Assembly (NCBI GenBank): GCA_050011875.1
Contig: JBEKIG010000002.1
Location: 66,822 to 130,821, forward strand
Source: Nitrososphaeria archaeon
GTDB lineage: Archaea; Thermoproteota; Nitrososphaeria; JACIWG01
Length of the DNA stretch: 64,000 bases
Reading direction: 5' to 3'
Positions 5,411 through 64,000 of this stretch are shown here, piece after piece (within the stretch, counting starts at the first letter, position 1; each line of letters starts with the position of its first letter). The translations under genes and the position numbers were made by a program. The notes below the pieces were generated by a model. The model ran no database searches, was not told the DNA's origin, and saw only the letters and a program-made list of their open reading frames with translations.

Positions 5411-5572
5411 TATACATATTTATCTGAATTTATTAAGAGTTTATGAAAGAACTTGTCAGATGATACTTTTCAATCAAAAACAGCTTTTTTGCTCAGGAAA
5501 TCGTTTGATGTACTTTAGAACACCAAAGCTTAATAGTTAAGAAAATAACAGTTAACAATATGTTTAATTTAT

Positions 5573-29484: not shown

Positions 29485-29510
29485 AAACAGTTAACTGTTT
29501 TTATTTTGAT
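29485..29510 (+). terminator. Palindrome AAACAGTTAACTGTTT followed by a T-rich tract
   Basis: A perfect 16-bp palindrome lies immediately 3' of the 29131..29433 ORF. Confidence 0.3.
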
Positions 29511-29778
29511 TATTAAGATTTAATGCTCTAAACACATGAAACGATTTTTAAAGCCTTCTAAAATGCTCTATAGGATATTTACCTATCACGGTTAAAACAG
29601 AATCAAAAAAAGAAAACCAAAACCAAGTATCCCATTTTATAAAAATCGCCAATGACATAAAGTTTTCCAGATATCCCAATCAAAGAGTTATTGTCTTTTG
29701 AATTGTACGCTTTATTTCCATCAAAAAGAAGGAGAAAATGTTCAATTTCCAATTTCGAGACTTTTCCATCCCCAAATT

Positions 29779-39770: not shown

Positions 39771-42512
39771 CTATGATGGCTTTGGATTTTCGACTCGGAC
39801 CACACCATGCTTACCAGCTACCCGCCTCGGCAACACAACCCTCCAAAGGACCACAACAGCCACCAAGACAACAGCTATCAAAACAATCAAAATAGACGCG
39901 ATAACCCAGTTTATCGAGAAGCTTGCCTGCAGGCTCTCAGCAGAGTTCACCACCACGCTGACGCCGGTCTCGCTTGAAGACGTTGCACCAGACCAGCCGT
40001 CAAACTTGAACAGGAAAAACGCAGGACTAGCTGCAAGCTGAACAGTCGAACCCAAGGGCACAAACAGCGTCCTATTACTCGCACCACCCACCTTACCAGC
40101 AAGCGAGGCAGAGCTATAGGAAACGCTTCCGAAACTCGAAGAAACAACAGAGAGACCAGGATAGAACATAGCGCTTTCAAAGATAGGACCACGAACCGTA
40201 ACAGTGAACGGATTACTCACCCCCCCATACGAGCCGACCCCTGAACCATTCCAAAACTCGAACTGCCAACCACCATTTGAAGCAGCAGAAAGCTGAACCT
40301 GCTCACTGGAATTAAACCAATCCGACAAAGGAGACACGAAACCACCCTGCTGGCTGTTGGAAAGGACCTGAACATAATATTGGTGGTAGTATTGTAAGGT
40401 CGCGGTGGTAGGTCCCGAGACAGCCCCTGCGTCGGTCTGAGACGTAATCCACCTTTCAGATGAATTAGAACTGGAGAGAGGGTTAGTGACCGACCAAGAT
40501 GAACCATAATCAAACCAGTAAGAGATAGACATACTCATTAAGGTCGGCGAAAACTTCACACCATTCTGCAAGCCTGAGAATAGCGGGGCGGCTGGCGAAC
40601 CACCTCCAGACATAGAATACGCCAGAGTCCAAGCCACCTGGAAGTAATACGGAACAACTACCACAGACCCCGAAACAGTTCCCGAGGTTCCAGTAATGGC
40701 TATCCACCTTGTGTTGGAATCGGACCCTGCTAGCAAGGCTGTGAACGAATAGGATGAATTCGCGTCCGCCCAGTCAGTGAAATTCGCCACCCCCTGCATC
40801 TGCGACCCAAACCTGATGTAACCGACGGTTGGAGCAGTGTAGCCAGGCTGACCGGAGTTCTCAAAGGTGAAGCTAAACAGAACGTAGTACTGGTCGTAAT
40901 ATGTGAAAAGAACGGACTGGGCGGCGGAAACGGTTCCTGAGGTCACATCCTGAGTGTACCATCTATGCACGCTACTCGACCCCTGTAAGGGGTTCGAAAC
41001 AGACCAGAGCTGTCCGCTGTCAGCCCAATAGTCCGTGGGTGAGCCGAAGAGGCTAACAGCAGCCGTTGAGCCGAACTGAGTTAGGGTAAGATTGGGCGCG
41101 GAAGGAGCTCCTCTCCCTACTGTCGTATAGCTGGAAGTCAACCTGTACTGGTGGTAGTATGTTACAGAGAATGAAGTACTAGCGCTGACCACGCCAGTCG
41201 CAGACTGAGTGGCCCACCGTTCGTTTACGGACGATCCGGGCAACGGATTCTGAAAGGAATACAATGAGTTGGTGTCCATGTAGTAGGTGGTAGAATTAGT
41301 GGAAAGCTGGATGCTGTACTGAATCCCGCCGAAACTGTATGTGAAGGATGGTGCAGAATACCCACTTCCCCCACCTTGAACCAAATAATTCATGTTAACT
41401 GTGACAACACTATATACTCCCGTGGTGAACTGATACCCGTCAGAAGCCTCCGTGGCGTTATGGGATGAGACGTACTGCAATGTGTTCGGACTCGTGTAGG
41501 CGACGGGAGTATTCGTGGAAGCCAAGAATAACAATTGGCCAGTGCTCGGCACCCATTCATCCATCCACATCCAGGCGGAGGGTTGTGCAAAGTTGTTTTC
41601 CCAATATGTCACATTTGCCTCTCCTCCATAATATGTTGAGGAGTGCCACCATTCCGTCATAAGCCCGGTCCAGAAGCCGATACTGTTCGTTGGCGATGAA
41701 GTAAGGCCTATGAAATAAGAAGAGCCCTCCTGGTTGAACATCTTTACGGCCCCTGCCCCCGTATTATAATCATATGCTTGCATCACGACGTCGCCCCCAG
41801 AAAAGAACAGGTTAAGGAGGACTGTATCCCCCTTGTTCACGGCCCCTGAGAAGGACGATATTCCACCTCCGCTTGCTGGGTAGATTGAATTACCACTTGG
41901 GTCAAAGACTTCGTAATTCATGCTAAAGCCCGATGCGTAGCCGCCACTAGAAAAAGGCCAATTCCAAGAAAGGCCCACCTGATACCAATACCCCGTATCA
42001 GTAAGGCCACATAGCAGATAGCCCGGTCCGTAGCCGTTGCTGTCCGCCTGAGCCACCGCGGTGATGTTGTATGCCATGCTTGTGAAGTTCTGGGTGAAAG
42101 TTAACCCCAGCTGCTCGTCGTAAATCGCGGATGGTTGATTCTCAACTGGGTAATCCTGGTTGTTTACAGTAGACAGCTCCAAACCAGCCAATCGATGGCC
42201 TTGCGATTGACCCGCCGGAGAATCAGAGCTGAAAGATTCTGGTACGTTTGGACGACACATCGAGCAAGAGTAAGATCCATCCGAACCCAGCCCAGTTGAA
42301 ATGTTAACACCACCTGAAGAGGGATTCATGACGGAGGAAGTTGCTCCAAAAACGCCAACATGAGGCGCTGTCCAACCAAGAGCGACAAGCATTACAATTA
42401 ACAGAATGCAGAAACCTAATCCCTTGGTAATACGTCGAACTGGGCAACCTTGAATCTTAATCAAAGCCGGTTTCAACCTTCTCTTTACGCATCGACACCT
42501 TCGTGACTGCAA
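39771..42512 (-). CDS. Large secreted/cell-surface protein (S-layer or adhesin-like) with a C-terminal TM anchor
   Basis: This Ser/Thr/Gly/Tyr/Trp/Asn-rich ORF (913 aa in the ORF track) has an N-terminal hydrophobic signal. The likely start is TTG at 42464, giving MIKIQGCPVRRITKG followed by the h-region. The C-terminus has a TM helix and an RR..K tail. GC content is higher than in neighbouring genes. Confidence 0.6.
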   Translation of the reverse strand: MQSRRCRCVKRRLKPALIKIQGCPVRRITKGLGFCILLIVMLVALGWTAPHVGVFGATSSVMNPSSGGVNISTGLGSDGSYSCSMCRPNVPESFSSDSPAGQSQGHRLAGLELSTVNNQDYPVENQPSAIYDEQLGLTFTQNFTSMAYNITAVAQADSNGYGPGYLLCGLTDTGYWYQVGLSWNWPFSSGGYASGFSMNYEVFDPSGNSIYPASGGGISSFSGAVNKGDTVLLNLFFSGGDVVMQAYDYNTGAGAVKMFNQEGSSYFIGLTSSPTNSIGFWTGLMTEWWHSSTYYGGEANVTYWENNFAQPSAWMWMDEWVPSTGQLLFLASTNTPVAYTSPNTLQYVSSHNATEASDGYQFTTGVYSVVTVNMNYLVQGGGSGYSAPSFTYSFGGIQYSIQLSTNSTTYYMDTNSLYSFQNPLPGSSVNERWATQSATGVVSASTSFSVTYYHQYRLTSSYTTVGRGAPSAPNLTLTQFGSTAAVSLFGSPTDYWADSGQLWSVSNPLQGSSSVHRWYTQDVTSGTVSAAQSVLFTYYDQYYVLFSFTFENSGQPGYTAPTVGYIRFGSQMQGVANFTDWADANSSYSFTALLAGSDSNTRWIAITGTSGTVSGSVVVVPYYFQVAWTLAYSMSGGGSPAAPLFSGLQNGVKFSPTLMSMSISYWFDYGSSWSVTNPLSSSNSSERWITSQTDAGAVSGPTTATLQYYHQYYVQVLSNSQQGGFVSPLSDWFNSSEQVQLSAASNGGWQFEFWNGSGVGSYGGVSNPFTVTVRGPIFESAMFYPGLSVVSSSFGSVSYSSASLAGKVGGASNRTLFVPLGSTVQLAASPAFFLFKFDGWSGATSSSETGVSVVVNSAESLQASFSINWVIASILIVLIAVVLVAVVVLWRVVLPRRVAGKHGVVRVENPKPS

Positions 42513-43391: not shown

Positions 43392-45572
43392 TTAGTTCTC
43401 TATTCCATTATCTTCTCCAGTTTCTCCTCCCTGCAGAATTTTTAAGGTATTCTTTATTTCTTTCAATTCTTCACTTGATATGTCATAAAGCCTTGCGACG
43501 TTTTTGTCAAGTTCTTCTTCAACTTTTTCCAATTCTTCTTTAGCTTTTGGATCATTTCCTTCATGTGATATCTTTGCAAGTTCGTGTGCTTTTAGTGAAA
43601 GATTGGAGATATCAATATGGAGGGTATTATTTAAGTCAAATTTGGGAATATACACAACATTTGGTACATCTGTTGTAATATGAACCTCAAGCAGATAACT
43701 ACTGACAATTAACCTTGCAAATGAGGAGTTTAGGATTCCACATAGATAATGTGCTTCTTCTCTCGTTTTAGATGTTATCATAACTAAACCATGTGAAAGT
43801 GCTACAACTTTCTCACCTAAGAATCCATCATTGACGGGAGTTATTACTGAACATGAAAAGCTTGCTATACCTGAAATAGAACCTGCTATGTGCTTCCAAA
43901 CTATTTTATAGGGAGATAAAGATGGGCCAACATTAAAAAGCATGTAAAAAGGTATTTTTTCTATTTCTTTACTTTTGCCTTGATAGACAACCAATTTTGT
44001 CTTGAACGGTTCCCCTTTGCGACCTATCAGTTCTTCGTAGAAGCTTTTGAAATATGAGAATGTACCTGGATATCGTGCCTTTAGCTCAGAAATTGGTATT
44101 GTGTTTCCCTTCCAATCTGTGGGTAATAGAATATAGAGTTTGGGCTTATAATACCACATCTTTGCGTCCTTGCCACGTATTATGGGATAAACAAGGTCTT
44201 TTTCAACAACATGTTCTAACTTCTTTACTTTTGCTTTTGCAGTTTCACTTATATTTTCAACTAAGAGCTTATTTGCATTTTCACTTTTAATTTGTGCCCA
44301 AAAGACTGCATCAAGTCCGGTAAAGATACCTGAATGAGCCTTATAATCAGATGGCCGCATTATTCTCTGTGCGATTTCATAAGCTTTTTCGCTGATTATC
44401 ATCCATGGCGTTTCTGGGTTTCCCTTTTTTATAGGAGCTAAAATCATGCAATATCTTTTTATCGTCTCTCTTACTTCCTCTAAATCAGATTCTTGTGCAA
44501 CTCCTTTACTATTTTGACTACTCCACATAATACATGGAATGGGAAATTCAGTCTTACCACTTTTCTCGATTATGATCAGGGATGTCCTGTTAATTGCACC
44601 TTCAAATGGAAAAAGAGTGACTAAGTCATGGATTTTTAAAACGCTGCACGGGATTTTTCTTTCTTTTTCGTCAATACCATTTGCTAAAAATCTTCTGAAC
44701 CCCGCCCCCGCTTGAGTTTTATACAATGTAAAAGGTATTAGAAAAGCGAACTTACCATGATCTTTAACGTATCTGTCTAAACATCTTGCGGTAAAGAGCA
44801 TTGACATATCTCTCTTGGTTTTACCTAATCCCATTCCTTCTGTTTTTTCCAATAAACCATAACTGTCCCATAGTCTTTTAGTATCATCCCTATATTTTTC
44901 TGGCAAGCTTTCCCAGTTTATCCAAGGAGGATTTCCAACAACGTAATCAAATTTCTCTATTAAAAGGGGGGCGAAGGAGTTCTTCAGTAATCTCGTCCAA
45001 ATCTTGTTTTTTCCTTCTTTCTCAAGTTTCCTCATGAACATGTAAAGTCTTATCAGAGAGTCTATCGTTTCCCCTTTGACATTCTTTAAGGCGTTTTCCA
45101 AAAGTCCGCTGAATTGGTCTTTAGTGTAGTCACCTTTGAAACCTGTCTCAATAAACGCTAACACGGTCGGGAGCAACTTTTTATCAAGAACTTCAGAGGG
45201 AAACCAAAACTCGCCTACAGCAGTCCTTAGATATACTTCCCATTCACCAGAGAATGTAGGCTTCCTACTAACTAATATTGAGTCAGCCAAATATACTGGA
45301 ATATCGATATTCTGTCCAAACAGAAGCCTGTTCAATTCACCTAAAGCTAAGACATAGTTCGCTCTGGCAGCTAACACAGCTAAAGGATTAAGATCTATAC
45401 CAATCACATTATGGGTGATTTTGCTAAGTAATTCTCTTTTATCAGAATAGAATTCTCTCTCAGCCCAATCTTTTATTCTGTTTATTGCCAAAACTAGGAA
45501 GGTTCCTGAACCACATGCAGGATCCAAAATCCTTCTTTCTGGATTTCCATCAAAACCAACTTCATCAAGCAC
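43392..45572 (-). CDS. N6-adenine DNA methyltransferase / target-recognition portion (internal Met start) of the split type IIG gene
   Basis: Motif I precedes motif IV, the gamma-class order. A long C-terminal region is a candidate target-recognition domain. Confidence 0.65.
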   Translation of the reverse strand: MLDEVGFDGNPERRILDPACGSGTFLVLAINRIKDWAEREFYSDKRELLSKITHNVIGIDLNPLAVLAARANYVLALGELNRLLFGQNIDIPVYLADSILVSRKPTFSGEWEVYLRTAVGEFWFPSEVLDKKLLPTVLAFIETGFKGDYTKDQFSGLLENALKNVKGETIDSLIRLYMFMRKLEKEGKNKIWTRLLKNSFAPLLIEKFDYVVGNPPWINWESLPEKYRDDTKRLWDSYGLLEKTEGMGLGKTKRDMSMLFTARCLDRYVKDHGKFAFLIPFTLYKTQAGAGFRRFLANGIDEKERKIPCSVLKIHDLVTLFPFEGAINRTSLIIIEKSGKTEFPIPCIMWSSQNSKGVAQESDLEEVRETIKRYCMILAPIKKGNPETPWMIISEKAYEIAQRIMRPSDYKAHSGIFTGLDAVFWAQIKSENANKLLVENISETAKAKVKKLEHVVEKDLVYPIIRGKDAKMWYYKPKLYILLPTDWKGNTIPISELKARYPGTFSYFKSFYEELIGRKGEPFKTKLVVYQGKSKEIEKIPFYMLFNVGPSLSPYKIVWKHIAGSISGIASFSCSVITPVNDGFLGEKVVALSHGLVMITSKTREEAHYLCGILNSSFARLIVSSYLLEVHITTDVPNVVYIPKFDLNNTLHIDISNLSLKAHELAKISHEGNDPKAKEELEKVEEELDKNVARLYDISSEELKEIKNTLKILQGGETGEDNGIEN

Positions 45573-52701: not shown

Positions 52702-52878
52702 ATGTCTGAAAAGATTTTTCCAAATTGGTATAAATATCTTGCTTATGTTGTTGCCTTTTTTCTCCTTCTTTCTTTATTTCTCAATGGTGTTATTCTCATT
52801 CTCACTCTTATATTCTCTCTTATTCTAACTCTCTTTCTCTTTGGTTATTACATTTTGAGGAGAAAAAGACTTCATTAA
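52702..52878 (+). CDS. Small two-helix hydrophobic membrane protein (58 aa; missing from the ORF track)
   Basis: The translation is MSEKIFPNWYKYLAYVVAFFLLLSLFLNGVILILTLIFSLILTLFLFGYYILRRKRLH. Confidence 0.25.
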   Translation: MSEKIFPNWYKYLAYVVAFFLLLSLFLNGVILILTLIFSLILTLFLFGYYILRRKRLH

Positions 52879-53084
52879 ATTTTTTAAAGCAATTGATTTT
52901 GCAGTATTATCTGTTTAACTAAATCATAAGTGTTAGATAAACTATCTATATCCTATACTCTAATAATGTATTTAGGTGTTGGCTAAACTAATGATATGAA
53001 CAAAATCCCAAATATAAAGTTAGAAATAAAGAATTAATCACACTATATTTTTTATTCTATCGCCAACTCTGGCGGAGTGGTCCA

Positions 53085-53426
53085 ATGGTCGAAGGTGCTA
53101 GGGTCGATTTCAAAGGATATGAGACTCCATCTAATCTTAGTAGTTCTATAAGATGGTTTGTCAAGCACAAACTAAAGAAGAAGATCTTAGAACTCAGTTC
53201 AGATTTGAATCACTTGAAAAAGAACCCTGACTTGTACGACTTATTCATTACTACCATTAGTGAGAATACTAAGGAATTAGATAACCTTAGCAAAAATGCT
53301 AAGGAAGAAACAGAACAAACCCCATCTTTCCCTGAAGGCTTTAAGACACAAAGTGTTTCAAAGGCTTCGTGGAGGTGGGGAGGGGATTTGAACCCCTGTA
53401 GATCCGCTCTGCAGGCGGATTCGTAA
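53085..53426 (+). CDS. Hypothetical ORF whose 3' end overlaps tRNA-Cys on the opposite strand
   Basis: A 113 aa open frame, which is unlikely by chance in AT-rich DNA. Its last roughly 19 codons are the reverse complement of the tRNA 3' half. Confidence 0.25.
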   Translation: MVEGARVDFKGYETPSNLSSSIRWFVKHKLKKKILELSSDLNHLKKNPDLYDLFITTISENTKELDNLSKNAKEETEQTPSFPEGFKTQSVSKASWRWGGDLNPCRSALQADS

Positions 53427-53444
53427 CGGCTCCGACACCCCACC
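53370..53444 (-). tRNA. tRNA-Cys (anticodon GCA), with encoded CCA
   Basis: The minus-strand sequence is GGTGGGGTGTCGGAGCCGTTACGAATCCGCCTGCAGAGCGGATCTACAGGGGTTCAAATCCCCTCCCCACC-T-CCA. It folds into a 7-bp acceptor stem, an anticodon stem TCCGC/GCGGA with loop CTGCAGA, a T-arm AGGGG-TTCAAAT-CCCCT and discriminator U73, which is the identity element of tRNA-Cys. Confidence 0.8.
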
Positions 53445-53720
53445 ATCATTTAAACCCTATTGATTTGAAGTAATGCTATATTAAAATTTTTTCGATTTTA
53501 AGGTTAGATCCCTTTGAAATAATAGTAGCGCTATTTTTTTATGGAGTCTGAAAGCGCGTTTATAATGGCGTCTTTTTTTTCGACATTTTATCCTCTATCT
53601 GTCCTTGAAGATTGTTTTCTTTTCTTACTTGTTTTATTTTAGAAAGAAGCCGCAAAGCTTCTCAAAAGGGATTTCTAACCCATTTTTAGATCATTTGTTC
53701 TAGTTGATAGATGAGTTAAA

Positions 53721-55085
53721 TCACATTTGAGCGTAGTTGTAGAGGAAAGATACCACTGATTTCTCGAACGCTCTAATTCCTTCAACAGTAAAGTATTCGT
53801 TGGGCGCGTGAGCTAAACCTCCGTGACCTAAGCCTCCAAACATCATCTTCATGTTAAAAGGTTCCTTGCAGAACAGATACATCGGGGCTGAACCTGGCAT
53901 CATTGGAAGTATAATCGGTTCGTGTCCAAATTCCCTGAACATCTTAATTGCTGCCTGAGAAATTTTTTCCTTAACTGACGTTTTAACCCAGCCATAATTG
54001 CATAGTACCCTTACTTCAATATCTCCAAATCCGTGTCTGTTTAGATGCTTCTTGATCTTTTCAACGACCTCTTCGCCTGTCATGTTTGGTACTAGTCTGA
54101 CGTCAACTTTCACAAGTATCTTGGATGGTACAATCGTTTTTGTAGCTGGCCCCGTCCAACCGCCAATAGCGCCTGCGAGGTTTATCGGCGAGGGTTCAAA
54201 GATCAGTTCTCTAGCCATCACTTTGATGTTTGTTCCTCTATACTGCCTAACATCGTAGACGCTTGTCATCATTTTAACGATACTATCTGCGTTTGAATCA
54301 ACGTTGTTTAGGTCTTCTTCTGATGGTGGTTCCACGTTTTCATAAAATCCTTCAACAAGGACGCCATCCTCTCCCCTCATGCTATTTAAAGCCCAAATCA
54401 TCCTCCAAATTGGGTTCGGAAGGATCGCAGCCTGGCTTGAATGGACATCTAGGGGGTTTGTTGTGCATTCAAGTTCTAGATATACTACTCCCTTGAATCC
54501 TAGTGTTAAAACGGGTCGTGCTCCTTTCACCCATTGACTTGGCTGTGCCATGTAGATTGCTTCACATTTTTTAAGTTCATCAGAGCATTTTTCAGCAAAT
54601 TCCGGGATATGTACACTACCCTGCTCTTCTTCCCCTTCAACGCCGACAATAAAGTTAAAGGGTAAATCTCCTGTGACATCCTTTATCGATTTTAGAGCGT
54701 TAAAGAATCCCATAAGAGGACCTTTGCTATTAATAGCCCCTCTAGCAATAATACGGTCTCCAACAATTTTGGCTTCATGAGGTGGCGATGTCCACTTGTC
54801 AACAGGCTCAATGGGCTGTGTATCGTACATTCCATATGCAAAGAGTGTTCGATTGCTTGTCTTTGACTTGAGTTTTCCAAAAGATACCGGATATCCACTT
54901 GTTGCAATGTTCCTTGCCTCTCCCCCAAGAAGGTTTCTTATATAATTGCAGTTCATTTCTGCAGTTTCTTTCATACCGAGACCGGTGGAAGATATACTGG
55001 GCTGTCTAAGGTACTCCTGAATTCGCTTTACATGTTCGTCGAAATGCTCGTCGATATATTGATATATTCGTTCTATATTTGACAT
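53721..55085 (-). CDS. M20-family metallopeptidase / amidohydrolase (ArgE/DapE/dipeptidase-like)
   Basis: M20 catalytic and dimerisation domain patterns are present (..GMYDTQP.., GVEGEEEQGS). Confidence 0.6.
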   Translation of the reverse strand: MSNIERIYQYIDEHFDEHVKRIQEYLRQPSISSTGLGMKETAEMNCNYIRNLLGGEARNIATSGYPVSFGKLKSKTSNRTLFAYGMYDTQPIEPVDKWTSPPHEAKIVGDRIIARGAINSKGPLMGFFNALKSIKDVTGDLPFNFIVGVEGEEEQGSVHIPEFAEKCSDELKKCEAIYMAQPSQWVKGARPVLTLGFKGVVYLELECTTNPLDVHSSQAAILPNPIWRMIWALNSMRGEDGVLVEGFYENVEPPSEEDLNNVDSNADSIVKMMTSVYDVRQYRGTNIKVMARELIFEPSPINLAGAIGGWTGPATKTIVPSKILVKVDVRLVPNMTGEEVVEKIKKHLNRHGFGDIEVRVLCNYGWVKTSVKEKISQAAIKMFREFGHEPIILPMMPGSAPMYLFCKEPFNMKMMFGGLGHGGLAHAPNEYFTVEGIRAFEKSVVSFLYNYAQM

Positions 55086-55152
55086 TTTTTCTATTATAAC
55101 TTTTTGGTTTTCATATTTAAACGTTAATAAACGACAAAAAAAGGGGAGAAAG

Positions 55153-55746
55153 CTATCCTTCCCTAGGCTTCGCGATTATTTCTTTTATTTTAAGATCCAG
55201 AAACTTTCTAGAACATACTGAATCAAGAACAATAGCAGTGTCTGCTCCTTCACTTGTGCCAGCTATAGCTATAATTTCCTTACCCAGCGGAATCAGTCCT
55301 GCGTCTGCAGCCATAAGTGTAATTTCTACACATACTTTCATACCTTGACAGAACCTGTAAAGAGTCTCCCTGACGACTTCGTTTGTTGAAATTCCGCCCA
55401 TCTTTCCGGTAAACGCGGAGCTTACATCATCTCCAAGAGCGTGAATACCCGTATGCACCTTTATCTTTTTCTCAAGCAACTTTCTTTTTTCTTCAGGAGT
55501 CATTGGCCAACCTTCTTCTTTCCATCCTTCACAAATTGATACAGCGACCAAATTAAATACTGGTTCCTTGAAGATTTCTGCTGTTTTCAAACCGGTTGAA
55601 CCGTGTGTAGTAGCCACAACTATGTCTGTTATACCAAGCTCTTTGGCGCGATCGTAAGCTAATTTCAGCGTTTCTCCTGTGTTAACAGAACCTTTTTCTC
55701 CATAATATATAACAGTCTTTTTCATTAAAATCACATCAGATACCAA
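55153..55746 (-). CDS. Stand-alone pyruvate-kinase C-terminal (PK_C)-like domain protein
   Basis: The segment ITDIVVATTHGSTGLKTAEIF..PVFNLVAVS resembles the PK alpha/beta domain. Confidence 0.4.
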   Translation of the reverse strand: MVSDVILMKKTVIYYGEKGSVNTGETLKLAYDRAKELGITDIVVATTHGSTGLKTAEIFKEPVFNLVAVSICEGWKEEGWPMTPEEKRKLLEKKIKVHTGIHALGDDVSSAFTGKMGGISTNEVVRETLYRFCQGMKVCVEITLMAADAGLIPLGKEIIAIAGTSEGADTAIVLDSVCSRKFLDLKIKEIIAKPREG

Positions 55747-56100
55747 AAAAATAAGACGTTGTTATTATATCTTTTGAAAACGTGTAACCCCCTAATTGTT
55801 CTTTAAATGTCATAAACATAAATATGTGTTATTAATCAATTACTTTTGTGATCGATGTTTCGTCCATATCTAAAAAGGAAACATCAAAGATATTAGATAT
55901 ATTATTTATCCAAATAAAGAAAGGATACGTCTAATTTTTAAATATTTAGGGATATTAAATTATGAGCATAAACAGATTGGCCAAAGTAACAATCAATCAA
56001 AATCTACTTTTATGCCATATGATTATTGAAATAAAACTATTTTCATTTTCCCATTTTTTTGTGAAGAAGCCGTGTTTATATAATTCGATCTTATACATGA

Positions 56101-57270
56101 TCAGTATAAAAGTTGCTTTTTCATGTAATCCGCATATTCTTTAAACTTTTCGAACTTGAATTCGACATGGATGAGGTGATCTACCGTTGGTATATATCCC
56201 CCCATCTCCTTTAATATAGGTACTTTCGAATCGACTTCTTTTCTCATTCTTGCACCACCTTCTGACGCTTCCCTTTTATCGATGTTCCCCAGAAGGAAGA
56301 GCTTGTTTCCGTACTTCCTCTTCACTTCAATGGCATTCATCTTGGAATTAACTTCCAGCGGCCACATACCATTTATTCCTGCCTCGATCGTCAGGTCAAA
56401 AAGAGGCTCGATGTAGCCATCACTGTCTTCAAGTACCTTCTCTATTTTATTTTTCTTCAAGAAACTTGTGACCCTTTTGTAGTGTGGTAGAAGATATTTC
56501 TTGTATAGCATCGGAGACAGGCATGGCCCATTCTTTTCTGCCATATCCTCCCACCAGTAGACCATATCAATCCTTTCCTTTAGTGTTTCAACAGCATCTT
56601 TCATGGTCTCTACAGTATAGAATTCCCAGTGATCTAGCATGTCCTCTATTAATTGAGGGTCCTTATAGAATGTAGTTAAGAATCCTGGGATACCCATGAG
56701 CTCCGCTCCAAAACCGTAAAAGCCGCTGATGCTGATCGCTGTACATCCTGCCTGATAGTTTTCAAACGCTTGCATGTAGGCGTCTTTTTCCCAGTCTTTA
56801 GGATATCTTAACGGATTATAGGGGTCAAGTCTCTTTTTATACTCCTCCCAACTTTTACGATCTTTAACCGGGAACTCTAAAAACATAGGCATACTATACC
56901 AGATGTACTCGGCTTTCTTGAAGCGTCGGGCAATCGCCCCGGTTTGAGTTAAAACGTCGACGTTTCTATCGGTTTCACCTAAAACCTTTTGCTTGAACCT
57001 GGGTATAGGACCTAAATCTATTGGCACAGTCATTCCTGTAAAGTTATAGCATCCAAAATATGGGTATGGATTCATGCCCCTTAGTATGGGCCAATTCAGT
57101 AAAGATACGCTTCCTGCCCTCACCTCCCAATCTATAACAAGTATCTTATCAGCTGGCAGGCCCTCGCCGAACCATTTGATCATTGTCTCATCATAGAATT
57201 TCTCGCACCATGGGAGCATATCAGGTTTTTTAAAGTTGATTACCGCTTTGATTCTCTCTCTCGGAGTCAT
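56101..57270 (-). CDS. Uroporphyrinogen-decarboxylase (URO-D) family protein, MtaA/CmuA-like
   Basis: The N-terminus MTPRERIKAVINFKKPDMLP matches the URO-D family start. The C-terminal segment GGYIPTVDH and the size fit. The start is placed at the internal Met, while the ORF track extends to 57333. Confidence 0.5.
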   Translation of the reverse strand: MTPRERIKAVINFKKPDMLPWCEKFYDETMIKWFGEGLPADKILVIDWEVRAGSVSLLNWPILRGMNPYPYFGCYNFTGMTVPIDLGPIPRFKQKVLGETDRNVDVLTQTGAIARRFKKAEYIWYSMPMFLEFPVKDRKSWEEYKKRLDPYNPLRYPKDWEKDAYMQAFENYQAGCTAISISGFYGFGAELMGIPGFLTTFYKDPQLIEDMLDHWEFYTVETMKDAVETLKERIDMVYWWEDMAEKNGPCLSPMLYKKYLLPHYKRVTSFLKKNKIEKVLEDSDGYIEPLFDLTIEAGINGMWPLEVNSKMNAIEVKRKYGNKLFLLGNIDKREASEGGARMRKEVDSKVPILKEMGGYIPTVDHLIHVEFKFEKFKEYADYMKKQLLY

Positions 57271-57447
57271 CAAAATTCTATTGCGCCTCAAGTTCATAAA
57301 ATGCATGGGCAATATTAAGGTTTTTAAGGTCACTTTAGGAACATACTTTTTTTACTTTTAGGCGTTTTTCTACTGTTAGCAAGTGTAACAAAAGATAAAT
57401 CAAGGATCAAGGAAACGCTTAGAACTTTATACTAGGCTTTTATGATT

Positions 57448-57972
57448 CTACTTTACGATAGTAAGGCTCTTAACCACCTTTATGTTTTGCAGCTCAGAAA
57501 TAACCTCTGATGGAACTTCTCCTTCTATTATCAGTGTTAGCTTTGGTTCCTTATTCAATTCAGGGTCGTCGGCTACCGCTTGTCTGATGATCAGTTTATT
57601 CTTGGCCATAATAGAAGTTACTTCTGATATTATGCCAGGTCTTTCCGCCTGAGATGTTATAATAATGACCGTAAATCCAAAATAGTGGGCAACATCCTTG
57701 AAGAATGTTATAGGAGTTAATTTTGTAAAGATATTAACTAGATTAGGATTAGATAGTATCAAATCAGCGGTTTGTCTTACTACCCTACGATCGACATTTA
57801 GAGCACGAGATATGGATATGTCTGGGATTTCAATCTCTTCAGAGTAATAGCGCCCATTGCTACCAACTCTGATGCCCGTCTCCAGCATCTTTCTTAATAT
57901 GATTGCCTGAGCTTTTCTCCGTCTTGTATTGCTTTCTATCATAGACCAAATTCCTCTTTCGTGAGCCAACAT
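57448..57972 (-). CDS. HTH plus ACT-domain putative amino-acid-responsive regulator
   Basis: An N-terminal helix-turn-helix-like region is followed by a C-terminal ACT-like beta-alpha-beta-beta-alpha-beta segment (FTVIIITSQAERPGIISEVTSIMAKNKLII). It is divergent from TrpB2. Confidence 0.45.
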   Translation of the reverse strand: MLAHERGIWSMIESNTRRRKAQAIILRKMLETGIRVGSNGRYYSEEIEIPDISISRALNVDRRVVRQTADLILSNPNLVNIFTKLTPITFFKDVAHYFGFTVIIITSQAERPGIISEVTSIMAKNKLIIRQAVADDPELNKEPKLTLIIEGEVPSEVISELQNIKVVKSLTIVK

Positions 57973-58045
57973 TGATTCAATGGACAGATCTGTTTAATAA
58001 AAGTCTTTCCGAGACGCTTCATACTATGTACATTTTTGTACATGA

Positions 58046-59452
58046 ATGTATATTAATGATTATATTAATGCATATAGCATGGTCAAAGATCAAGGCAACA
58101 AGATAAATCTGCCAGCAGAGGATATACCTAGATCATGGTATAACATTCTTCCGGACCTACCTGAACCGCTTCCACCCCCACTTGATCCTGCAACGGGTAA
58201 GCCGGCTAATCCTGCTGCGTTGGAAAGAATATTTGCGAAAGAATGTGTGCGCCAAGAGGTTTCAACTGACAGCTTTATACCCATCCCTTCTGAAGTTCTT
58301 GAGATATATCTGACGTTGGGAAGACCAACCCCTCTCTTCAGAGCGAAGAGACTTGAAAGAATTCTAGGGACGCCGGCTGAAATATACTTCAAGCGTGAAG
58401 ACTTAAGTCCGGTTGGAAGCCACAAGCCGAATACCGCTATAGCACAGGCATACTACCTTTCCAAGGAAGGTGTTAAGAAGGTTACAACCGAGACAGGTGC
58501 AGGACAGTGGGGTTCAGCTCTTGCACTTGCAGGATCCTTTTTTAACTTAGAAATAATGGTTTTTATGACGAGGAGCTCATATAACACCAAACCTTATCGA
58601 AAAATCCTGATGGAACTTTTCGGCGCAAAGGTGTACTCTTCTCCAAGTGATCAGACAAAAATTGGGCGTGAATTTCTAGGTTTGGATAAGGAACATCCTG
58701 GCAGCCTAGGTATTGCGATAAGCGAAGCATTGGAAATCGCCTTGAGTGATGAACATAGAAAATATTCTTTGGGAAGCGTACTAAATCACGTTTTACTGCA
58801 TCAGACCATAATTGGTTTGGAAGCAAAAAAACAGATGGAAATGGTCGACAAACAACCTGACATAATCGTAGGCTGTATTGGTGGTGGAAGCAATTTTGCT
58901 GGCATTTCTTATCCTTTCATACACGATAAGCTCAAGAATAAAAGTGAGACCCAATTCCTTGCGGTTGAACCTAAGGCTGTGCCGTCGACAACCCGAGGAA
59001 GGTACATCTACGATTTTGGTGATTCAGGAGGCATGACACCTATGCTCAAGATGTATACGCTTGGCAACAGATTTCCAATTTCGCCAATTCATGCTGCAGG
59101 GCTGAGATATCATGGTAAAGCGCCATCTCTATCATTGCTGATAAAAGATAAGGTGGTTAACAGTATTTCTTATGACCAAAAGGAAATCATGGACGCAGGA
59201 GTTCTTTTTGCTAAGGCTGAAGGAATAGTACCTGCGCCGGAAACAAATCATGCAATAAAGGCTGTAATCGATATTGCTTTAAAGGCAAAGGAAAAAGGAG
59301 AGAAAAAGACGATTCTTTTCAATTTCAGTGGGCATGGACTGCTAGATCTCAACGCATATCAAGATATGCTCAATAGAACAATAACGGATTATGAACCAAC
59401 TGATGAGCTCATAAACAAGTCCCTATCCCAGGTTCCAAAAGTTGGTAACTAA
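58046..59452 (+). CDS. trpB2: Tryptophan synthase beta-chain paralogue TrpB2
   Basis: The TrpB2-specific N-terminal extension ([19 protein letters not shown]) is present. The PLP lysine sits in [12 protein letters not shown], and GGGSNFAG is present. Confidence 0.8.
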
Positions 59453-59999
59453 ATTGAGAAGAATCAACTCTTCCAATACAAAGTATGAAAATACCTTTTG
59501 CAAACTAGGTTTACATAATGGAGAATCCTACAAATTCGAAAGCTTAGAAGCCATAATTGTAGAAATAAACGAGCTTAAAGAACACGAGAAAATAGATGAA
59601 CAATATTGCGAACAGTTAAAAAGTAGAATACAGAAAGACGGTTTTATCAAGAAGGCAATAGCAGTTGATGCTAACACCCGAATAGTGTTAGACGGACATC
59701 ATAGGCTGAACGCTTTAAGGAGACTGGGTTGCAAAAGGATACCGGCTATTCTCGTAGACTATAATAGTCCGATGATTCAGGTGCAAGGATGGAACAAAGA
59801 TACTGTCAGCAAACAAGCGGTAATAGTGGCGGGAACAACCCCAAATAAACTTCCTCCCAAGACAACCAGACACACAGTAATCATCAATGGGTTATCGAGA
59901 CACATTTCTTATATAGAGAAAAATGTGAACATACCTTTATCGGAGCTAAAGCCTAAAAATTATGATGCAATGCTTTCAAAATTTGTTGCCAAAAAATAA
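59442..59999 (+). CDS. ParB/sulfiredoxin-fold protein (candidate free L-serine kinase)
   Basis: The DGHHR motif sits in the context [23 protein letters not shown]. An 11-nt overlap with the trpB2 stop indicates translational coupling. Confidence 0.45.
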
Positions 60000-60511
60000 A
60001 CTTCGTAAGTAAATAGTTAACTGTTATTTTTTTAATTTTTAATTATTTATTTTGGATTAATCTGGGGTATAAGTGGTATAATAGCTAGCTTTTTTCTATT
60101 CCTATTTATCGATACTTTAATAATTATTTTTCTGACAAAGTTAAATTTGATTTGAAAATAAGTATTTTAATTGCGTTATTTACTTCATTTATATCTGATA
60201 TTATATTTGTTATTTCCTTGACACGTGTTTACATATCAAAAACCCCACCATGTAGGCTCTGGACGGGCTGGAGGAGACCAGAAGTCAGCCTGTTGACGAG
60301 CAGAAGAAATCATTAGCCTATCGTCAGGTGGACCACAAACAGTCCTCCGTTACATGCAAGCATATGCAACCAACGACACCGCCAAGTCCAGGCGATGATC
60401 CTCTCAACGTTCGCCCGCATCTTCATCCCTTGCTTGAGGGCCAGCTGCCATCCTGAAGTTTAACCCTAAATACCTTCCGTTCGCAATATATCGGGACGCA
60501 CCTGACCGGAA

Positions 60512-61585
60512 ATGAAAATACTCTTCGGCGTCTGCTCGTGGGGTCTAGGGCACGCCACTCGCACCCTCCCTATAATAAGGAAGATTATTGAAGATGGCCA
60601 CGAGGTCACAGTGGTCTCGAGCGGGAGAGCCCTGAGCATGCTGAAACAGGAGCTTGGCCCCGGCCCCAGCTTCGCGCGGCTGGATGACTACCATCCGCCG
60701 GGGACCTTGAACCCGAGTTACCTGACCGTGGGCACGCTGCTCCGTTTCCCGGTCTACGTCACCGCGATGTTACACGAACATGACTTCGTCAGGAGGTTGC
60801 TCGCGCGGAGGAAGGTGGACGTGATCTTCTCAGACAATCGCTTCGGCTTTTACTCCCGTGAAATAGCAAGCTTCTTCATGACCCATCAGCTCAGGATCTT
60901 GAACCCCCTCGGCGTCGGCGTCCTCGAGGACGGGACCGAGATCTACAACAAGTACTTCCTCGACCGATACACCGGCATCCTAGTGCCCGACTTCGAGGAG
61001 GACGGCCTGGCGGGCAGGCTCGACCACGGCCTCTCCATCATTGACGAGAAGCGCCTGAACTACATCGGCGTGCTGTCCGAATTCAGCTATCATCCCGCCG
61101 TCGAGGACGTGGATGTCTTCGTCTCCATCTCCGGCCCCGAGCCTCAGAGGAGCGCCTTCGAGGGCCTGGTCCGCAAGCAGCTGGACGACTTTGAAGGGAG
61201 GGTTGTGGTGTCGCTGGGCAAACCAGAGGACAACGGTCACATGGTACACAACCTCAAAGGCTATCTGGAGAGGGATGAAAGGGAGGAGCTGCTCAACCGG
61301 TCGAAGATCGTCGTCGCCAGGTCCGGCTATTCCACCCTGATGGACCTCTGCTCTCTAAGGAAGAGGGGGTTCCTGATCCCCACGCCGGGACAGGTGGAGC
61401 AGGAGTACTTAGCCAAGTACCACATGGAGAGGAGGAACTTCTACAGCGTCCGAGAGAGGGAGCTGGACTTCAAGGCGCAGCTGGAGGAGGCCCTCTCATT
61501 CCGCTCACCTAAGCTGAAGTATCCGACTGACAGGGCTGTGGAGAAGGCCGTCGACGTCATCACCGGGACGGCCCGAAGCGCCTGA
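60512..61585 (+). CDS. GT-B glycosyltransferase, MJ1255/MurG-like family
   Basis: The N-terminus MKILFGVCSWGLGHATR is present, and the C-terminal half is typical of GT28-C/UDP-glycosyltransferase-like domains. Confidence 0.55.
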   Translation: MKILFGVCSWGLGHATRTLPIIRKIIEDGHEVTVVSSGRALSMLKQELGPGPSFARLDDYHPPGTLNPSYLTVGTLLRFPVYVTAMLHEHDFVRRLLARRKVDVIFSDNRFGFYSREIASFFMTHQLRILNPLGVGVLEDGTEIYNKYFLDRYTGILVPDFEEDGLAGRLDHGLSIIDEKRLNYIGVLSEFSYHPAVEDVDVFVSISGPEPQRSAFEGLVRKQLDDFEGRVVVSLGKPEDNGHMVHNLKGYLERDEREELLNRSKIVVARSGYSTLMDLCSLRKRGFLIPTPGQVEQEYLAKYHMERRNFYSVRERELDFKAQLEEALSFRSPKLKYPTDRAVEKAVDVITGTARSA

Positions 61586-61590
61586 TCTCC

Positions 61591-62556
61591 CTATATGAGG
61601 CTGTCCACATAGGGCCTAAGGGCTGAGATACCGCTTCTAAGGGAGATGAACGAATCAGTCGCGAAGTACTGATACCAATGGCAGTCGATGTCGCAACTCT
61701 TCATCTTTTCCCTGCATTCTCTGGCCCTCTCCGTGCCCAGGAATCCCATAAGGGGCTCCTCCGACGCGTCGATGCTTTTCTCCATCAACGTCCTGCAGGG
61801 ATAGTAGAGCCGTCCATCGGCGTCGATGATGATCGAAGCAGCGTTGCAGCTGTGTGGGACCTCAAGGGTCCTCAGGTACTTGTCGGTGGTGATGATGGTC
61901 CCCGGATACTCGTTCTTGAGCCGTAGGACCTCATCCCTGAAGACCCTGGTGTCCGGCAGGAAGTCCTCGGTCCCTGGAATGTGGCAGGCTGGCATTACGA
62001 CAGCCTTGGCGCCGGCGTCGTGGCATTTCCTAATCTTGGACTCCAGTGTCTGGAGGTACTCCTTCATCACCACGATTTGCACGCAGACGATGGGACCCCA
62101 GGACGCGAACTCTTGAAGGGATTCGTAGAGGTCGAGGTTTCTGTGGCCTTCGTCTATGCTAACGTGGAGGAAGTCAATGTACTTGGCGTACTCCTTCATG
62201 GGCCTCCTGTCGAAGAGCTTCCCGCTCGAAGTGAAGAGGAGGTAGAGGGGCTTGGTCCGGGCGTATTCGAGCACCTCGCCGATGTCGGGCCTCAGCAGAG
62301 GCTCCCCGCCCTCCAAGCTGAGGAGGACGACGCTGGAGTTCGCGACGTTGTCGATGACCTTGAGCAACTTCTCAGTGGGCATATCAGGCGTCTGGGACCT
62401 CCATACGTTACAGAACTCGCAGCGAGAGTCGCATCGCTGTAGGACCTTGAATGAGCAGTAGAACGGAAAGCGGAAGTCCTTTGCCGTGTAGTCGGCGTAG
62501 GCATACCTGAGCGTGACAATGTACTTGCTGGCTGGCAGGTGCCTAATTCGTGACAT
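61591..62556 (-). CDS. Radical SAM enzyme with a SPASM/twitch-like C-terminal Cys domain
   Basis: The CDSRCEFCN (CxxxCxxC) and GGEPLL motifs are present, together with C-terminal Cys clusters CNAAS..YYPC and C..C..C. It is convergent with the glycosyltransferase, with a 5-nt gap. Confidence 0.7.
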   Translation of the reverse strand: MSRIRHLPASKYIVTLRYAYADYTAKDFRFPFYCSFKVLQRCDSRCEFCNVWRSQTPDMPTEKLLKVIDNVANSSVVLLSLEGGEPLLRPDIGEVLEYARTKPLYLLFTSSGKLFDRRPMKEYAKYIDFLHVSIDEGHRNLDLYESLQEFASWGPIVCVQIVVMKEYLQTLESKIRKCHDAGAKAVVMPACHIPGTEDFLPDTRVFRDEVLRLKNEYPGTIITTDKYLRTLEVPHSCNAASIIIDADGRLYYPCRTLMEKSIDASEEPLMGFLGTERARECREKMKSCDIDCHWYQYFATDSFISLRSGISALRPYVDSLI

Positions 62557-62768
62557 GGTGACCCTGATATCCTTGCACTTTAAAAAGAATTGCGCCGCAG
62601 AAGCGAGTCGTAGATGAAGACGAGCCTCTTGGCCACCTTCCCTATGTCGTGGGAATCCAATGTCGCCTGTCCCTCTCGGGCCAAGGACTCTGACAGATCA
62701 TCATCCCCCCGTGGTCGTCACAGGGCCGTCACGAAGTCGGCCGCAGAGTCCCCCAAAAGTCGGAAGTG

Positions 62769-63896
62769 TTATAATTGGATAGTTATTCGTTTACCCTCTT
62801 CTGCTGACTTAAGAATCGAATCTACTATTACGCAATTTCTGTAACCATCTTCGAAACTAGCACCGTATGGCTCTATTTTCTTATCATTAACGATAGCATC
62901 GATGAAATGATGTATTTCACCAATATAGGTCTCACCGAAGCCTATCATAAAGCCAGTTGGCCAGAGTTGCTGGATTCCCGTCTGATTTTTATCTGGGAAT
63001 AGAATTTTTGCCTCACCTTCAGTAGCATAAAAGAGTAGTTCGTTAATTTTTTCCATGTCAAACATAAGTGAACCTTTTTCACCATTTATTTCAAAACTAT
63101 TATAATTTTTTCTACCAGTGACAAACTTTGAAATTTCGAGGGTTCCTAATGAACCATTTTCAAATTCGATAACAACGGCCGTTGCATCCTCAACAGTAAC
63201 TCTTCCCTTCTTAGTTGGATCTCCGATCAAGGGTCTCTCATTAATGAATGTTCTTGTAGCAGCGCTGACAGCAGACACCTCACCAAGAATGAATCTTGCC
63301 AAGTCAATAGAATGACTTCCTAAGTCACTTATTGGTCCACTTCCAGCCCTATCTTTCAACAGCCTCCATTTAAGAGGAAAATTGGGGTCAACGAGTCTAT
63401 CGGTGAAAAATCTTGCTCTGTAATGGTATATTCTTCCAAGTCTTCCAGACTTCACGATTTCTTTTGCCATTATGGCAGCTGGAATAAACCTGTAATTGAA
63501 AGCTACCATCGTTTTTACAGAAGCTTTTCTTGCGGCATCACGCATTAATTTAGCTTCTTGACTATTCCTTCCCAAAGGTTTTTCGCATAACACATTTTTC
63601 CCAGCTTCAATAGCTTCGATTGAAGGCTCTTCATGCATATCATTAGGTAGAGAATTGTCGACCAAATCCACATCAGGACTTTTCACTACAGATTTCCAGT
63701 TAGTTGTATAGTTCCTGAACCCATAGTTTTCAGCGGCTTCTTTTAACTTAGATTCAGTTCTACCGAATATGATAGAGAGGTCAGGCACAGCCGGAGGTGG
63801 CCAAAAAAAATGAGGCATTATTTTATAAGCGAATGAATGCGTCTTACCCATAAAAGCATAACCTAACATCCCCACGCCTATTTTCTTAACCGTCAT
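62769..63896 (-). CDS. Gfo/Idh/MocA-family NAD(P)-dependent oxidoreductase
   Basis: The N-terminal Rossmann motif IGVGMLGYAFMG and EKP motif are present, with the C-terminal alpha/beta domain. Confidence 0.7.
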   Translation of the reverse strand: MTVKKIGVGMLGYAFMGKTHSFAYKIMPHFFWPPPAVPDLSIIFGRTESKLKEAAENYGFRNYTTNWKSVVKSPDVDLVDNSLPNDMHEEPSIEAIEAGKNVLCEKPLGRNSQEAKLMRDAARKASVKTMVAFNYRFIPAAIMAKEIVKSGRLGRIYHYRARFFTDRLVDPNFPLKWRLLKDRAGSGPISDLGSHSIDLARFILGEVSAVSAATRTFINERPLIGDPTKKGRVTVEDATAVVIEFENGSLGTLEISKFVTGRKNYNSFEINGEKGSLMFDMEKINELLFYATEGEAKILFPDKNQTGIQQLWPTGFMIGFGETYIGEIHHFIDAIVNDKKIEPYGASFEDGYRNCVIVDSILKSAEEGKRITIQL

Positions 63897-64000
63897 AAAC
63901 TCTGTAACAACTCGATGAAGTATATAAATTTGTTTGGAATTCTAATCTAAAATATACTTACACACTATTTCCATCATCTTTTAAAGGTTGTTCGTTTTTC

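Follow-up and report, generated by a model that had tools for sequence, protein, structure and literature searches.

How did an island of GC-rich DNA come to lie in the GC-poor genome of an uncultured archaeon, and what does it carry? The island, about 2.5 kb long, was found in a stretch of 64,000 nucleotides (nt) of a Nitrososphaeria archaeon (GenBank assembly GCA_050011875.1, contig JBEKIG010000002.1, positions 66,822 to 130,821 of the forward strand), which we call the window and in which all positions are counted unless another contig is named. It holds two convergent genes, one for a GT-B glycosyltransferase (hereafter GT) and one for a radical SAM enzyme (hereafter rSAM). We conclude that the island is very probably a fragment of a glycosyltransferase cluster from a high-GC Nitrososphaeria lineage, inserted in the genome of a GC-poor Nitrososphaeria that lives in soil or sediment.

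Composition and extent of the island

Between positions 60243 and 62759 the GC content of the window is 57.6%, against 38.5% for the remaining 61.5 kb. Sliding windows of the same length placed elsewhere have 38.6 ± 2.9% GC with a maximum of 51% (38.1 ± 2.0% if an outlier at 39.8-42.5 kb, described at the end, is left out), and the island deviates from the rest of the window with a z value of 6.7 to 9.9. The GC content at third codon positions (GC3) is 0.82 for GT and 0.79 for rSAM, compared with 0.37 ± 0.04 and a maximum of 0.48 for the 24 open reading frames (ORFs) of the host which are at least 250 amino acids (aa) long. A similar composition (GC3-like, 0.8) continues into the non-coding and pseudogene ends of the island. 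These values bear out the sharp jump in GC described in the initial annotation of this DNA. The same annotation placed the jump exactly between the ends of two native genes, at 59999 and 62769. This is right for the right side, where the step lies at most 10 nt from the stop codon of a Gfo/Idh/MocA gene (62769), but not for the left side, where the rise begins at about 60243, some 243 nt past the end of the upstream gene (59999), and is preceded by a spacer of 20% GC.

This AT-rich spacer (60007..60242, 236 bp) has a host-like composition and lies within the segment which is not syntenic with relatives of the host; its alignment with the spacer of one of them (L095) scored 49, no better than shuffled sequences (44.6 ± 6.1). 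It contains a 31-nt AT-rich motif, AATAGTTAACTGTTATTTTTTTAATTTTTAA (60012-60042), which may be a terminator or promoter element of the host; further copies on the host contig, 84-94% identical, were found at 5530-5559 and 29485-29516 of the window and at 17110-17140 of L001. Next comes the left end of the island itself (60243..60396, 154 nt, 54.5% GC), for which no homolog was detected: blastn, tblastx and local alignments compared with shuffled sequences gave no significant match in the fetched loci, and an exact 32-mer taken from it was not found in metagenome_contigs.

The two intact genes

GT (60512..61585, + strand, 357 aa) and rSAM (61591..62556, - strand, 321 aa) lie tail to tail with a gap of 5 nt, and the convergent pair first reported from the ORF list is confirmed by these coordinates. 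GT matches the Pfam families PF13528 (Glyco_trans_1_3, 46.7 bits) and PF04101 (Glyco_tran_28_C, 26.7 bits), both above threshold. According to its AF2 (AlphaFold2) model (pLDDT 89), it has a GT-B fold with two Rossmann-like domains, the C-terminal one being of the type which binds nucleotide sugars. In Foldseek searches its nearest matches were GT1-family UDP/TDP-glycosyltransferases which glycosylate hydrophobic small molecules, and also MurG; the GT1/GT28 enzymes YjiC, YojK, OleD, CalG and MurG share the two-Rossmann fold with it at TM scores of 0.62-0.68. The assignment of GT to the MJ1255 family was not borne out: the NCBIfam model TIGR00661 (MJ1255/VC2487) gives 41.7 bits, far under its cutoff of 195.9, and matches only residues 2-47, that is the N-terminal 45 residues or so. 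Some homologs of GT bear the TIGR00661 label at JGI, while GT itself stays below the cutoff, and our literature search found nothing relevant on MJ1255, TIGR00661 or PTO1314.

rSAM belongs to the Radical SAM superfamily (PF04055, Radical_SAM, 50.2 bits for a threshold of 29.5), in agreement with its fold matches, which have a partial TIM-barrel core. As had been noticed at the outset, it has a CxxxCxxC motif and additional cysteines towards the C-terminus: the motif C42-x3-C46-x2-C49 is invariant across 25 homologs, among which C191, C237, C254, C288 and C292 are also conserved. The C-terminal pattern is C237-x10-G-x5-C254 followed by C288-x3-C292; it looks like a partial SPASM or twitch arrangement, but the full CxxCx5Cx3C motif is missing and Pfam found no SPASM match. 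The best NCBIfam model, TIGR03961 (PTO1314 family), reaches 66 bits for a cutoff of 306, and no curated model accepts the protein. Searches with the AF2 model of rSAM (pLDDT 83.5, with low confidence for residues 297-313) placed BlsE first among the folds of the PDB (TM 0.65, E = 4.6e-12), followed by SuiB, PqqE, SkfB, viperin, MoaA, anSME and DesII, with identities of 14-18%. The structural neighbours are a mixed group in which several sugar-modifying enzymes are included, and those which come nearest are of the SPASM/twitch kind. When each gene is compared with its nearest relatives, dN/dS is 0.10 for rSAM and 0.21 for GT, values which mostly reflect the evolution of the donor clade.

Donor side of the island

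The closest relatives of the island are all found on GC-rich contigs. A JGI contig of 60.6% GC (L096, from 3300044800) is 87.4% identical in nucleotides over 60397-62753; an ENA contig of 57.4% GC (L005) and a contig of 57.9% GC from the Nitrososphaerales archaeon SMAG_U12145 (L009) are 85.7% and 85.8% identical to the island, and a contig of 56.9% GC from Conexivisphaerales SPRUCE 7 (L010) is 76% identical. The convergent arrangement with 5 nt between the genes is kept in L096, L005 and L009. For the proteins, identity reaches 85% between GT and P0122 of L096, and 90% between rSAM and P0001 of L005. In a neighbour-joining tree of rSAM, the copy of the window falls inside a group of contigs with 57-61% GC. 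Both genes were found in 57 of the reference loci fetched, with GC contents from 27% to 61%, and in every one of these the DNA of the pair agrees in GC content with the rest of the locus; the window is the only fetched locus in which the two differ. On the donor side the gene order is GT2, a 77-aa membrane protein, GT and, tail to tail with it, rSAM, beyond which lie the genes of GT4 and of an LPG_synthase_TM protein.

Both ends of the island lie within donor genes of this cluster. On the left, a frameshifted 3' stump of the gene for the 77-aa membrane protein (60397..60460, + strand) matches the C-terminus of the 77-aa ORF of L096 in two frames, with indels. The 29-aa GC-rich ORF which had been pointed out at about 60370-60460 does exist as a short ORF, but it ends in this stump. 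On the right, a 5'-truncated pseudogene of the donor GT4 (62583..62759, - strand), in a segment which includes the upstream region of rSAM, retains the last 59-60 codons with an in-frame TGA. It matches the GT4 of L005 with 72% identity in tblastn (E = 3.6e-20), the stop falling inside the match, and the nucleotide alignment, 80% identical, begins exactly at 62759. dN/dS of the GT4 stump is 0.40, against 0.34-0.49 for the same region of intact genes; there is no difference, and the decay cannot be dated in this way. Since stumps of donor genes are found at both ends, the island is the torn-out middle of a larger cluster. A donor of high GC, proposed from composition at first, is thus borne out by the nesting of the genes in a clade of 57-61% GC, by the agreement of GC content in the 57 loci and by the truncated remnants.

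The right junction can be placed to within a few bases. Relatives of the host align up to about 62756-62758 and relatives of the donor from 62759 leftwards, and about 4 nt (AAAG on the + strand, 62756..62759) are common to the host-type and the donor-type sequence. Within the window we found no integrase, no transposase, no tRNA target, and neither terminal inverted nor flanking direct repeats at the island; the only tRNA of the window lies 7 kb away. The short overlap, together with the lack of integrase, tRNA and repeats, points to illegitimate recombination.

Sequences which may serve expression have come along with the genes. The donor-derived region upstream of GT (60461..60511, + strand) holds, at a distance of 38-50 nt from the ATG, the motif AACCCTAAATACC, which is conserved in L096, L010, L011 and L016 and is possibly an archaeal promoter. 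Upstream of rSAM there is a conserved T-rich donor element which overlaps the stop codon of GT4. It is plausible, judging from these motifs, that GT and rSAM are expressed in the host from the retained promoter-like sequences of the donor; a scan for sigma-70 promoters and intrinsic terminators was uninformative for archaeal DNA.

As to the age of the event, the genes of the high-GC relatives have a GC3 of 0.80-0.89, and those of the window (0.79 and 0.82) lie at the lower edge of this range. Third-position changes on the branch of the window number 48 from GC to AT and 5 from AT to GC; the corresponding numbers are 29 and 15 on the branch of L096, and 43 and 10 on that of L005/L009. The bias towards AT differs between the window and L096 (p = 0.005), but not significantly between the window and L005/L009. 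At best, these counts hint at amelioration in an early stage, with a loss of GC3 of a few points at most. The transfer took place later than a divergence of about 5% in host nucleotides, measured from the host relative L008, and before the nonsense mutation and several indels of the stumps. The initial view of a very recent, unameliorated acquisition is thus bounded by the host divergence only, and the remnants at the ends are already decayed.

The host slot

The island lies between two convergent host genes. The left one (59442..59999, + strand) encodes a 185-aa ParB_N / SerK-like protein which has weak Pfam and NCBIfam matches, the best NCBIfam match being the ADP-dependent serine kinase SerK with 54.9 bits, under the cutoff of 380. 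The gene is syntenic in relatives and 91-93% identical in nucleotides in L093 and L095; homology stops at 60006. It overlaps by 11 nt the gene of a 468-aa pyridoxal phosphate (PLP)-dependent enzyme of the PALP family (both within 58046-59999, + strand), and the two may form a serine-kinase/PLP-enzyme pair. The right gene (62769..63896, - strand) encodes a 375-aa oxidoreductase assigned by Pfam to Gfo/Idh/MocA (GFO), and is 94-95% identical in L007, L008 and L095.

Contigs of relatives were located through homologs of the GFO protein, and the flanks of four of them (L095, L093, L007 and L008) are 92-95% identical to the window. The most complete, L095 (9,952 bp, 38.7% GC), keeps the gene order and matches 56083-60006 with 93.1% and 62768-64000 with 94.2% identity. 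Its slot consists of 1,923 bp of native GC content encoding a zinc alcohol dehydrogenase (ADH) and a glyoxalase/VOC protein, in the order SerK-ADH-VOC-GFO. The slot of L093 contains the glyoxalase/VOC gene only (544 bp, 30.7% GC; SerK-VOC-GFO), and that of L007 has ADH only beside GFO. The contig of L008, which comes nearest to the window over the GFO flank (95.3%), stops 21 nt after the end of GFO, in VOC-type sequence. In these four contigs the slot, or the downstream sequence which matches it, has 31-39% GC. The glyoxalase/VOC gene was not found anywhere in the window. The slot thus occurs with at least four contents (ADH and VOC, VOC, ADH, GC-rich island) among genomes which are 93-97% identical, and is a local hotspot of gene turnover, of whose alleles the island is the odd one out. 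Had relatives carried the pair at native GC in the same locus, the foreign origin suggested by the initial annotation would have been contradicted; what they carry there is ADH, VOC or both.

Taking these results together, a fragment of at least 2.36 kb, probably about 2.5 kb, was very probably cut from a larger glycosyltransferase cluster of an unsampled Nitrososphaeria lineage of 57-61% GC and entered, by a putative illegitimate recombination, a Nitrososphaeria genome of 38.5% GC. Landing between the convergent SerK-like and GFO genes, it would have replaced a native alcohol dehydrogenase-glyoxalase cassette; the central tail-to-tail genes alone remained intact, both outer donor genes having been cut through and left to decay.

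Genomic islets whose composition is atypical because they arrived by horizontal transfer are the subject of the amelioration framework of Lawrence and Ochman. The island resembles such islets by its sharp step in GC and GC3, its patchy presence in close relatives, its variable intergenic slot and its putative cargo of accessory envelope-sugar genes. It differs from them in that it is only 2.5 kb long and without mobility genes, is a torn-out middle with both flanking genes truncated, and has a donor and a recipient which belong to the same archaeal class. Horizontal transfer into the slot is well supported by GC and GC3, by absence from relatives and by phylogenetic nesting. The transfer itself is a clean but ordinary, textbook case of a known phenomenon; for an uncultured archaeon it is unusually well delimited, with one breakpoint placed to a few bases and with the displaced genes and the donor clade identified.

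A conserved module and its possible function

The cargo is more useful than the transfer. It belongs to a widely conserved and uncharacterised module, of which the island marks a minimal two-gene unit. When ORFs from 82 fetched loci were clustered, rSAM was present in 80 loci, GT4 in 59, the GT-B transferase in 56, a flippase-like LPG_synthase_TM protein in 53 and a 616-aa membrane protein in 52. The latter is polytopic, without a Pfam match, and in Thermoplasmatota its gene lies between those of GT4 and the GT-B enzyme (for example at 8207-10057 of L055 and 6944-8794 of L046, besides 50 other loci). Also in Thermoplasmatota, genes of polyprenyl synthetase (25 loci) and of proteins like type-2 isopentenyl diphosphate isomerase (IDI2-like, 19 loci) are found beside the module. 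Among the species-representative genomes of GTDB the five-gene module was located 313 times, and no description of it was found in the literature searched. Copies of the rSAM-GT pair occur widely in Nitrososphaeria, Methanomethylicia and Thermoplasmatota; its carriers are metagenome-assembled genomes (MAGs) which bear the labels Thermoplasmatota, Methanosuratincola, Conexivisphaerales and Nitrososphaerales, and whose record titles point to peat, soils and sediments. One MAG, JOPF010 (Nitrososphaerales, 45-47% GC), has two copies of rSAM (L012 and L021), one with an adjacent GT and one without. A contig labelled as an Ignavibacteriales bacterium (L088) has homologs of rSAM and GT with 50% and 35% identity at a native GC content of 53%, which could be due to mis-binning or to transfer between domains.

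The fold classes and the gene neighbourhood point to a probable role of the module in the synthesis or modification of an envelope glycolipid or a glycan/lipoglycan, with rSAM altering a sugar. Both intact enzymes of the island most likely act on a cell-envelope glycoconjugate: GT would transfer a sugar from a nucleotide-activated donor to a hydrophobic or lipid-linked acceptor, and rSAM would alter the sugar, or a precursor of it, by means of a 5'-deoxyadenosyl radical and one auxiliary Fe-S cluster, in a reaction such as an oxidation, an epimerisation, a decarboxylation or a rearrangement of the ring. The island, together with L012 and L013, in which the pair stands without the other module genes, suggests that rSAM and the GT-B transferase are a self-sufficient unit.

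Two known systems can be compared with the pair. The calditol synthase Cds (Saci_1489) of Sulfolobus acidocaldarius is a radical SAM enzyme whose presumed substrate is a hexose already linked to glycerol dialkyl glycerol tetraether (GDGT) lipids (PMC13459092, PMC9092360), and is found mainly in organisms of acidic environments (PMC13459092). rSAM too is an archaeal radical SAM enzyme which plausibly has a glycosyl group as its target; a glycosyltransferase step must precede that of Cds, and the module adjoins isoprenoid-lipid genes in Thermoplasmatota. Most lineages with the module do not seem to be thermoacidophiles. The second comparison is with the sugar-modifying SPASM/twitch enzymes BlsE (7vob), DesII (8hzv), AbmM (8wm2) and SpeY (7wzx), of which BlsE is the best fold match to rSAM; others of the group are within the top 50. 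rSAM is like them in its partial SPASM-type cysteines and its pairing with a glycosyltransferase, but at 14-18% identity, and with maturases of peptides, viperin and MoaA scoring about equally.

Extending the analogy, one may imagine that the pair is the portable core of an undescribed archaeal pathway, distinct from calditol synthesis, which equips isoprenoid membrane lipids or a lipoglycan with a head group made of a rearranged or epimerised sugar. We regard this proposal as unlikely, though worth stating: if true, the pathway would have been retained in archaea ranging from Thermoplasmatota to Methanomethylicia and non-ammonia-oxidising Nitrososphaeria, and the island would be an instance of the core passing from one lineage to another and functioning although the remaining module genes are absent. 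As a putative two-gene unit, the pair is a small, tractable target for heterologous expression followed by lipid or glycan analysis.

Alternative explanations

The island could have been cargo of a mobile element (remnant of a plasmid or virus, transposon or cassette system), site-specific recombination accounting for the alleles of the slot. The four or more gene contents of the slot among close relatives would fit such a system, as would the AT-rich spacer motif repeated elsewhere in the genome. However, the hallmarks of mobility listed above (integrase, transposase, tRNA target, repeats of either kind) are missing, the island ends inside donor genes, consistently with random breakage, and the ADH/VOC differences between relatives resemble simple deletions of native-GC genes. 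We consider this explanation very unlikely.

Still less probable is a chimera of assembly, in which a stretch from a co-occurring high-GC archaeon was wrongly joined to a low-GC contig. The initial annotation had named misassembly as the finding which would undo it, and at the level of contigs the junctions are supported. The window lies in the JGI contig Ga0427922_0000120 (213,926 bp), which crosses both junctions; a Logan contig of run SRR13201612 crosses the left one and is 100% identical over 52857-62217; a MEGAHIT contig of ERZ27250170 spans 60241 onward and crosses the right one. In an NCBI MAG (labelled Nitrososphaeria archaeon) the SerK-like, GT, rSAM and Gfo/Idh/MocA proteins have the consecutive accessions MGD0329125-28. 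The MEGAHIT assembly does split at the left junction (one contig ends at 60261, the other starts at 60241), the island and the host flank are on separate short contigs in SRR7028486, and donor-like contigs (L005) come from the same ENA accession series, all of which a chimera would explain. Yet the second MEGAHIT contig of ERZ27250170, which carries the host flank, itself continues 19 nt into the GC-rich DNA before ending, and the junctions are reproduced by three assemblers. The joins share no sequence able to mislead a de Bruijn graph, and the pseudogenised ends, with their TGA and frameshifts, are not expected in the genome of a living donor. An exact protein look-up of rSAM and GT gave no identical island in a high-GC context. 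From the assembled contigs and the MAG, the join is unlikely to be an artefact.

That the pair is native and ancestral, lost in relatives and kept GC-rich by selection or biased gene conversion, is hardly credible: the pair is indeed widespread in the three archaeal groups named above, and a Nitrososphaeria lineage of 45% GC (L012, L013) carries it natively, but its GC content equals that of its surroundings in each of the 57 reference loci, the GC3 of about 0.8 reaches into non-coding and pseudogene ends, the slot is occupied by native-GC ADH and/or VOC in three relatives and by VOC-type sequence in a fourth, and the genes nest in the high-GC clade at 82-90% aa identity, compared with 65-75% for the 45% GC lineage. 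Equally hard to believe is the maturation cassette for a ribosomally synthesised and post-translationally modified peptide (RiPP), glycosylated and encoded as a short precursor upstream of GT, which was an early suggestion for the pair: the fold neighbours of rSAM include the maturases SuiB, PqqE and SkfB and there are short ORFs upstream of GT, but the upstream ORF is the frameshifted remnant of the 77-aa membrane-protein gene, what accompanies the pair in 80 loci is a set of glycosyltransferases and polytopic membrane proteins with no conserved small ORF (hence no conserved precursor gene), peptidase, exporter or other RiPP-type partner, and Pfam found no peptide-binding RRE domain.

Several observations weigh against the insertion of a working donor fragment, which we nevertheless prefer. 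Between the assemblies which cross the junctions identity is 100%, so that they may share one population or partly the same libraries, and in one assembly by MEGAHIT and one by Logan there is a break at the left junction or close to it, beside the spacer of 20% GC. The origin of the 154 nt of the left end and of the 236-nt spacer was not traceable by the alignments run. The nearest relatives of the island are only 87% identical, with dS of 0.44-0.52; therefore the true donor is unsampled. No empty site, with the SerK-like gene directly abutting GFO, was found, in a search of metagenome_contigs with the SerK-like protein which missed even the source contig. On the functional side, the codon usage of the island genes is far from that of the host. 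The GT4, flippase-like and 616-aa genes were not transferred with the pair; homologs of GT4 and of the flippase-like protein were not found in the approximately 86 kb of host contig searched, a search in which the 616-aa gene was not included. The pair may be non-functional in this host, and the assignment of substrate and chemistry draws only on fold class and gene neighbourhood.

Other observations

The second compositional outlier of the window, at 39771-42512 (- strand), is a single ORF of 913 aa, rich in Ser, Thr and Gly, with 51% GC and a GC3 of 0.55 (host mean 0.37). Its product is hydrophobic towards both termini and has no match in Pfam. The GC-rich stretch at 40-43 kb is not rRNA but this 913-aa ORF, and no relation to the island was shown. 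The ORF could be another foreign gene, or its bias could be driven by the amino-acid make-up of the protein. Adjoining this gene of a presumed surface protein is that of a 726-aa DNA methyltransferase of the Eco57I/MmeI type (43392-45572, - strand).

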